Source: Kondoa subrosea | Lineage: Eukaryota | Reading direction: 5' to 3' | DNA: 64,000 nucleotides | Assembly (NCBI GenBank): GCA_039545335.1 | Contig: BCIN01000009.1 | Span: 434,001 to 498,000, forward strand | In this document: one piece after another, positions 42,852 through 45,462 of the stretch | How positions within the stretch are numbered: the first letter of the stretch is position 1 | Layout: the number at the start of each line of letters is the position of its first letter | Made by a program: the position numbers and the translations under genes | The notes under the pieces: model-generated | Database searches by the model: none | What the model was told of the DNA's origin: nothing | What the model saw: the letters and a program-made list of their open reading frames with translations, nothing else

Positions 42852-45462
42852 ATGAAGGCCTCTCGATCACTCGCCCGTGCGGCCCTTAGAGCCTCGTCTC
42901 GCTCAGCAGCAACGGCAGCTCGACGCAATGTCGCTGTTTCTGCACCCAAAGTTGGCGCAAGTTTCATCAACGCTCGCATGCAAAGCACTTCCTCTGCCTC
43001 TACCTCCAGTAAGCTTCCTGTCTAACGATGAGCTCTATGCGCGCAATTGTCGAGGTCCATCGATACACGTTGGGGACAGTCTCGGCATCGAAAATATAGT
43101 GTGAAAGTCATGCATAAGGGCAAATACTGATTGCTGGCATTCTTTGTGTGTAGAGAGAAACTACGCAACTGAAGCTAAATCTACCGGTCAAGTAAAGACT
43201 GTCATTGGTGCCGTTGTGGATGTACAGGTTAGTACTCTTGACTTCCCGTTTATTTGTACCGCTCGAGTGTCTGATGTTGGTGCAATTGTGTATAGTTCGA
43301 ATCAGATGCCCTACCACCTATTCTCAACGCTCTTGAAGTCCAAGGATTCGGTACAAGATTGGTCTTGGAAGTAGCTCAGCATTTGGGAGAAAACACTTGC
43401 CGAACAATTGCTATGGGTGAGTGCAGCTTCATTCTGTCCCTATTCTTAAACTAATATGTCCCTCTAGACGGTACATCACTCAATTTTGCTATGATAGATG
43501 CCAGAACTGAATTATATTTGTGGCAATTTAGGTACAGAAGGTCTTGTTCGAGGCATGAAGGTCCTTGACACTGGCGCACCTATCACGATTCCTGTCGGCC
43601 CTGAATGTCTTGGTCGTATTATCAACGTTATTGGTGAACCAATCGATGACAGAGGTCCAATCAACACCAAGACAAGGATGCCGTGCGTTTGACAATGTCA
43701 TTGTGTTGGACGCAGCTCATGTCATGCCAAATGCGTACAGTATTCACGCCGAAGCTCCTCCCTTCGTTGACCAGTCGACAACCGCTGAAGTGCTCGAAAC
43801 TGGTATCAAGGTCGTCGATTTGCTTGCTCCTTATGCTCGTGGTGGAAAGATTGGTCTCTTCGGAGGTGCTGGTGTTGGAAAGACTGTGTTGTTAGTCCGG
43901 TTGCTTAGATATTACCGGCGCATCTAATCAGTCTTGCGGGATAGGATTCAAGAACTGATCAACAACGTCGCTAAAGCTCACGGTGGTTACTCAGTCTTCA
44001 CCGGTGTCGGTGAACGTACTCGTGAAGGAAACGATCTGTACCACGAAAGTAAGCAGATTTTGGGAAGGGCAAGGTTTCTTGCTTAAACCGATATTGATTT
44101 ACAGTGATTGAAACCGGTGTCATTCAATTGAAGAACGATAAGTCAAAGGTCGCCTTGGTCTTCGGTCAAATGAACGAACCCCCTGGTGCTCGTGCTCGTG
44201 TCGCTCTTACTGGTTTGACCATTGCCGAATACTTCAGAGATGAGGAAGGTCAAGATGTGTTGCTCTTCATTGACAACATTTTCCGATTCACTCAAGCCGG
44301 TTCTGAAGTGTCTGCTTTGCTCGGTATGTTATCCGAATATCAATTTTGACCTTTCCTCATTGATCTCTAGGACGTATTCCTTCTGCCGTCGGATACCAGC
44401 CAACTCTTTCAACGGATATGGGAGGGTGAGCAAGCCTTACTTGCAAGTCAATCAAGTCTCATCTCAGGTCAATAGTATGCAAGAACGAATTACCACCACC
44501 AAGAAAGGATCTATCACATCAGTACAAGCCGTCTACGTACCAGCTGATGATTTGACCGATCCTGCTCCTGCTACAACCTTCGCGTATGTATCAAAAAGTC
44601 TGATAAGTTGGCAACAGTACCTGACATATGTTTACTACTAACAGCCATTTGGATGCTACCACTGTATTGTCAAGAGGTATCGCTGAGTTGGGTATCTACC
44701 CTGCTGTCGACCCTCTGGATTCCAAGTCAAGAATGCTGGATCCCCGTATTATTGGTCAAGAGCACTACGACGTCGCTTCCAAGGTTCAACAGATTCTTCA
44801 GAACTACAAGGGTCTGCAAGATATCATTGCTATTCTAGGAATGGACGAGTTGAGCGAAGAAGATAAGCTCACCGTCGAACGTGCAAGAAAGATTCAGCGT
44901 TTCATGTGAGTCTTGAGCTCGAGGTTTGGTGTACCTGTACTGATAGTGTGATGTCAGGTCCCAACCTTTCGCCGTCGCGTGAGTCCAGCTTCAGGTTGAA
45001 AGATGAAGTTTCTGATTATTTTTTTCTCTTTCCTTTTTCTTTCTCTTTCCCTCTCCTCCTCCCCCTCGCCCTCCCTCTCCCTGTGGCCTTGCGAACAACA
45101 GAGAAGTCTTCACAGGGATAGAAGGGCAAGTCGTCTCTTCTTCATGACTGCCAAAAACTTTTTTCTGATGTCTGGGTCGACGTATTTAGTAAACTTGTAC
45201 CATTGAAAGAGAGTGCGTCGTTCGGAGAGTGGGGAGTGTTGTAGGACTGCCGCTGACGTGTTTGCGCAGCCGTCAAATCCTTCAAGGACATTCTTTCCGG
45301 AAAATACGATTCCCTACCTGAATCCGCCTTCTACAATAAGTCCTTTCGCTGTCTCCGCTGTATACCTGCTAATATACTGTCTTGTGATTACTGGTTGGCA
45401 GTATCGAGGATGCTCAAGCGAAAGCCGAAGCTCAAGCCAAGGAAATTTCGGGTGGTAACTAG
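42852..45462 (+). CDS. ATP2: Mitochondrial F1 ATP synthase beta subunit (15 introns, one GC-AG and one AT-AC)
   Basis: Presequence, [85 protein letters not shown]. Confidence 0.98.

Follow-up and report, generated by a model that had tools for sequence, protein, structure and literature searches.

How is the last intron of a core respiratory gene removed when its ends appear to be AT and AC, and which of the two spliceosomes would act on it? The question is raised by ATP2, the gene for the mitochondrial F1-ATPase beta subunit, as found in a 64,000-nt stretch of DNA from Kondoa subrosea (hereafter the window). A preliminary description of this stretch had reported an AT-AC intron with major-spliceosome signals near the 3′ end of the gene, together with an in-frame GT-AG alternative that was thought to compete with it. 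The reading favoured here, with a probability of about 0.85, is that of a constitutive AT-AC intron that would be removed by the major (U2-dependent) spliceosome, i.e., a type II AT-AC intron. From the sequence of the intron, the uniqueness of its junction, its splice signals and the products of related genes, all of which can be read directly, we infer as the best explanation both the use of the junction in Kondoa subrosea and the identity of the acting spliceosome.

The ATP2 gene and the position of its last intron

The gene was modelled by hand and occupies 2611 nt of the + strand of the window. The features on which the argument turns are the following:

42852-45462, + strand: ATP2 (mitochondrial F1-ATPase beta subunit), hand-built model from ATG to TAG, 16 exons, 15 introns, 535 aa
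45270-45335, + strand: exon 15, ending in TTC TAC A, i.e., Phe, Tyr and the first base of a Met codon
45336-45391, + strand: AT-AC intron, 56 nt, phase 1, interrupting the Met codon
45336-45341, + strand: 5′ splice site /ATAAGT, a U2-type consensus with A for G at +1
45369-45373, + strand: branch-like CTAAT; the A at 45372, 19 nt before the 3′ end of the intron, is the presumed branch point
45390-45391, + strand: 3′ terminal AC/, from direct reading and from the enumeration of excisions
45340-45401, + strand: in-frame GT..AG alternative, donor GTCCTT and acceptor GGCAG/, its product seen in 0/7 relatives
45392-45462, + strand: last exon, TG GTT GGC AGT ... TAG, with the stop codon at 45460-45462

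The introns of the model range from 47 to 145 nt; 13 are GT-AG, one is GC-AG (45126-45189) and one, the last, is AT..AC (45336-45391). The encoded protein is 97.9% identical over 535 aa to P0121, a transcript-derived protein that is its closest relative. P0121 in turn matches the yeast F1-beta chain 2xok_D (PDB) with an E value of 1.8e-256, in an alignment that reaches residue 530 and in which the yeast form of the C-terminal motif, with G instead of S, aligns with FYMVGS. The nearest named ATP2 proteins are all basidiomycete (Phenoliferia, 82%; Cronartium, 81%; Meredithblackwellia, 81%; Filobasidium, 77%), which places the host among the basidiomycetes, probably close to the Pucciniomycotina. 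When the genome's own annotated ATP2 protein was sought with the N-terminal exon, only P0127 (70%) and P0002 (67%) were returned. The stretch 42852-45462 thus encodes a full-length F1-beta subunit with the conserved C-terminal motif.

The last intron lies in the context TTC TAC A/ATAAGTCC...CTGCTAATAT...GATTAC/TG GTT GGC AGT ATC, and its removal yields a protein of 535 aa ending in the FYMVGSIED motif. Its position was assessed by enumerating all excisions with donors at 45300-45370 and acceptors up to 45430, a total of 5396 pairs, and by scoring the C-terminus that each would give against the final 44 residues of P0121. The pair 45336/45391 was the only one of the 5396 to score 44/44, and the best GT-AG or GC-AG pair reached 38.5/44. 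Moreover, the junction 45335/45392 cannot be slid in either direction, since the bases that would have to be equal for a shift are unequal: position 45335 is A and 45391 is C, and position 45336 is A and 45392 is T. The residue that the intron interrupts belongs to a conserved context. Among 127 stored F1-beta proteins, 105 carry F-[YF] within their last 45 residues, and M is the next residue in 104 of these 105, so that a Met after F-Y/F appears near universal in F1-beta. The last ATP2 intron therefore almost certainly has AT as its first and AC as its last two bases, as judged from this uniqueness and from the fixed junction, which bear out what had been proposed for it. Upon re-reading of the sequence, the letters and coordinates previously given for the intron and for its alternative were also found to be correct throughout. 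A crude scan of the window for ATRAGT..AC recovered 45336-45391 only in the wrong phase.

Splice signals and proposed mechanism

Apart from its first base, the donor of the AT-AC intron is an ordinary one for this gene: positions +2 to +6 (TAAGT) are the commonest bases among the 14 other ATP2 introns, with A tied with G at +3. The distance of the CTAAT motif from the 3′ end is equally unexceptional: a branch-like motif could be matched in 11 of the 14 other introns, where the nearest one lies at 10-23 nt. A length of 56 nt is likewise typical of an ATP2 intron. In U12-type introns, a TCCTTAAC-like branch site is expected some 10-15 nt upstream of the 3′ end. On direct reading, no such element is apparent near the 3′ end of the 56-nt intron, whose last 30 nt are ATACCTGCTAATATACTGTCTTGTGATTAC.

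U2-type ("type II") AT-AC introns have been described as possessing a good U2-type donor apart from position +1 (Sheth et al. 2006, PMC1557818, in its accessible portion). Their consensus /ATAAGT is qualified as "very strong" in the available excerpt of Gould et al. 2016 (PMC5029451), which gives /ATATCCTT for the U12-type class. The donor ATAAGTCC fails to fit the latter, and ATAAGT differs from /ATATCC at +4, +5 and +6. As far as the accessible parts of two surveys state, convincing minor introns and minor snRNAs are lacking in Basidiomycota and are wholly absent from Dikarya (Larue and Roy 2023; Girardini et al. 2024, PMC11347168). An Rfam scan of the 64-kb window at gathering thresholds gave 0 matches, a result that is hardly informative for sequences outside the window. 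Altogether, the intron at 45336-45391 is probably a genuine U2-type AT-AC intron; the earlier assignment to the U2 type and not the U12 type is upheld by the /ATAAGT donor and by the branch-like CTAAT located 19 nt before the 3′ end.

In the mechanism that we propose, the donor AUAAGU would be recognised by U1 and later by U6, to which it would offer an otherwise perfect match, while the CUAAU branch region would pair with U2. The non-Watson-Crick contact that the first and last G of an intron normally make in the second step would be replaced by an A-C pair. Both intron ends would have changed together because this A-C contact presumably substitutes for the G-G contact. A pairing rule for the first and last intron bases reportedly emerged from the work of Parker and Siliciano in 1993 on the yeast actin intron. 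An engineered AT-AC intron is spliced in yeast, according to the citation of that study in the excerpt of a later paper (Parker and Siliciano 1993, as cited in PMC5029451). The product of the reaction would be normal full-length F1-beta, and use of the GT-AG alternative would generate at most a minor by-product.

Products of related genes and the GT-AG alternative

A search with the longest exon identified seven JGI/IMG proteins, P0002 and P0121-P0126, which are 90.5-97.9% identical to the ATP2 model. Their contigs are 1637-1775 nt long, the size of an mRNA, and carry uninterrupted open reading frames of 487-535 aa. Because the gene in the window takes 2611 nt and 15 introns, these contigs are most simply read as spliced transcripts. 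FYMVGS is present in six of the seven proteins, that is, in all six that have a complete C-terminus. The last 35 residues of the model are matched exactly in five of the seven, and in the sixth a variant tail comes after FYMVGS. The form FYNNIE, expected from the GT-AG alternative, was found in none of the seven transcript-derived proteins. This evidence consists of protein sequences only, which reveal the product of the mature message, not the structure of the gene or the ends of its introns. A metagenome scan returned at least 80 loci of 57-76% identity, each running as one unbroken segment across the Y/M junction with no intron; none of the metagenome matches listed was a close relative.

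The remaining protein, P0124, leaves the family directly after the residues that end exon 12 (44978/44979) and ends 12 residues further on. When its tail was compared with the reading frames of intron 12 of the window, none gave a convincing match, the best agreement being 4/5 residues. An unspliced or mis-spliced message, together with a shared intron position, would fit this protein. Given its aberrant C-terminus, the set of relatives' transcripts does include unspliced, mis-spliced or mis-assembled forms.

These products bear directly on the possibility that the GT-AG pair 45340/45401 is really used, exclusively or at a substantial level, and that the AT-AC reading is an artefact of homology. 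The pair has canonical ends, and no other GT-AG or GC-AG pair preserves both the reading frame and most of the C-terminus (38.5/44) while ending at the same stop codon. Its excision gives a protein of 533 aa in which the frame is kept and N-N replaces M-V-G-S, resulting in FYNNIED. However, position +3 of its donor GTCCTT is C and position +5 is T, each with 0/14 occurrences among the other ATP2 introns; its product is missing from all seven relatives' proteins; and the residues that its use would remove belong to a motif that has M in 104/105 F1-beta C-termini and is present in the solved yeast F1. We consider this explanation unlikely. The GT-AG alternative is thus what it had been said to be, weak and in frame. 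On the other hand, the idea that the two junctions compete finds no support; the AT-AC product occurs in 6/6 complete C-termini of relatives and the GT-AG product in 0/7. Likewise, nothing in the analysis supports the suggestion that the intron constitutes a rate-limiting or regulated splicing step.

Origin of the intron and integrity of the sequence

In the 5′ end of the intron (45336-45347), ATA-AG-TCCTTT, the U12 donor ATATCCTTT can be recognised once the two bases AG are set aside; the observation was made post hoc and the resemblance may be due to chance. One can imagine an ancestral U12-type ATP2 intron that kept its AT..AC ends and had a U2-type donor re-fitted when Dikarya lost U11/U12. 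In such a history, the in-frame GT-AG pair could have served as a fallback during the transition. We regard this history as quite improbable. ATP5 has 0 occurrences in the human minor-intron gene tables of PMC6717393, as covered by 8 supplementary files that may be an incomplete set.

Another explanation is that the AT..AC ends reflect a sequence or assembly error, or a decaying copy, and that the true functional gene has GT..AG ends. Non-canonical ends are a frequent symptom of errors. Two specific errors 55 bases apart would nevertheless be needed, and they would have to give exactly the one end pair that is tolerated; two independent errors in an intact and highly conserved gene are unlikely. 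The gene is otherwise undamaged, in its exons as in the 14 remaining introns, and its product shows 97.9% identity to the form expressed by a relative. In addition, comparison with Logan contigs from two DNA runs, at word depths of 143 and 54, revealed no difference from the window at any base of 45089-45700, although both runs derive from one sample, possibly the very source of the assembly, and so represent an independent re-assembly, not an independent sample. The agreement excludes an assembler slip, not a peculiarity of the sample. The preliminary description had named G at both 45336 and 45391 as the sign of an assembly error, and the re-assembled contigs of the two runs reproduce both the A and the C. 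An error or a decaying copy is therefore very improbable.

Finally, a U12-type intron in a lineage that retained the minor spliceosome is barely credible: minor introns were historically recognised by their AT-AC ends, and a two-base deletion in the ATAAG that precedes TCCTTT would produce a U12 donor (again a post hoc observation), but ATAAGT mismatches /ATATCC at three positions, the 56 nt have no TCCTTAAC-like branch site near their 3′ end, Basidiomycota, according to the accessible parts of the two surveys, lack both minor introns and minor snRNAs, and the Rfam scan of the window, which has little bearing on the rest of the genome, found nothing.

Comparison with known AT-AC introns

U2-type AT-AC introns are rare but already known, and that of ATP2 is probably a further example. 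In the accessible portion of one survey, 24 are counted among about 610,000 introns from five species (Sheth et al. 2006, PMC1557818). The type II introns of human SCN4A and SCN5A, as far as the available excerpts describe them, likewise combine AT..AC ends and an /ATAAGT donor with an ordinary branch site, and lack U12 motifs. The type II examples known from these partial sources are metazoan, whereas the ATP2 case, as predicted from its sequence, concerns a core respiratory gene of a short-intron basidiomycete. U12-type AT-AC introns have these terminal dinucleotides in common with it, but differ in their donor and branch motifs, and the host lineage has been reported, in the accessible parts of the surveys, to be without the machinery that they require. 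GC-AG introns offer a different parallel: there too, a non-GT donor is offset by an otherwise perfect donor sequence, but the change affects a single end and calls for no counterpart at the 3′ end, unlike in AT-AC introns.

AT-AC introns are scarcer in fungal annotations than in those of animals or plants (Frey and Pucker 2020). In Trichoderma longibrachiatum, RNA-seq attributed 69 of 14305 junctions to the AT-AC class (PMC4324775), and the Sanger-checked non-canonical sites of Fusarium graminearum include AT-AC (PMC3577648). Like the ATP2 case, these Dikarya junctions occur in fungi reported to lack the minor spliceosome. AT-AC introns have also been "hypothesized" for xylanase genes of filamentous fungi, in the accessible text of PMC1557818. 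In Saccharomyces cerevisiae, a minor AT-AC isoform of RPL30 represents 1-2% of transcripts, according to the excerpt of PMC5029451. The RPL30 donor, as given in that excerpt, is unlike /ATAAGT, whereas the ATP2 donor fits the consensus exactly; and unlike the RPL30 isoform, removal of the ATP2 AT-AC intron must be the main or sole route to functional protein. No AT-AC example in ATP2 was found in the literature searched, and our claim in this respect is a narrow one.

If correctly interpreted, the intron would provide a clean natural case of an A1/C-last pairing tolerated by the major spliceosome, in which an obligatory intron of an essential and highly expressed gene is carried by a lineage without the minor spliceosome. 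Its interest would grow only if the AT-AC state proved to be conserved in the clade or traceable to a U12-type ancestor. A practical consequence was rightly anticipated: a predictor restricted to GT-AG and GC-AG introns is unable to recover the conserved motif (best score, 38.5/44), and gene callers limited to GT-AG would output a truncated ATP2 or a damaged C-terminus. The locus is thus a useful annotation test case for this group of fungi.

Other features of ATP2 and its neighbourhood

Two further peculiarities were observed within the gene. The first is a candidate micro-exon of 3 nt (ACG, 43468-43470), located between the GT-AG introns 43417-43467 and 43471-43531. It appears to be required for the Asp of IAMDGTEG, a residue present in all seven relatives' proteins. 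In run X3, which contains mixed organisms and is guessed to be RNA, the contig of a diverged relative links 43416 to 43531 through two additional letters; over 44934-45700, which includes the AT-AC junction, this run gives no cover. The letters GTACA stand after the micro-exon as well as after the second acceptor, so that alternative, non-canonical borders up to 5 nt to the right are equivalent and give the same message.

The second is the GC-AG intron at 45126-45189 (agg/GCAAGT...ATTTAG/ta), two introns upstream of the AT-AC intron, whose donor is perfect in all other respects. Shifting both borders of this GC-AG intron leftward by one base (GG..TA) would leave the message unchanged, and the model across it is identical to the relatives' proteins. 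A pyrimidine-rich tract of CT repeats (45016-45088) lies in the intron 44979-45101, the longest of the 3′ introns, and was left out of the read comparison as a repeat.

The genes on either side of ATP2 are unrelated to the AT-AC intron. Upstream, 40292-42292 (+ strand) encodes a WD40-repeat protein that matches the first beta-propeller of WDR3 (E 3.4e-51). Downstream, 49277-49957 (+ strand) corresponds to a fragment of a FUSC_2-like membrane protein (E 2.8e-13).
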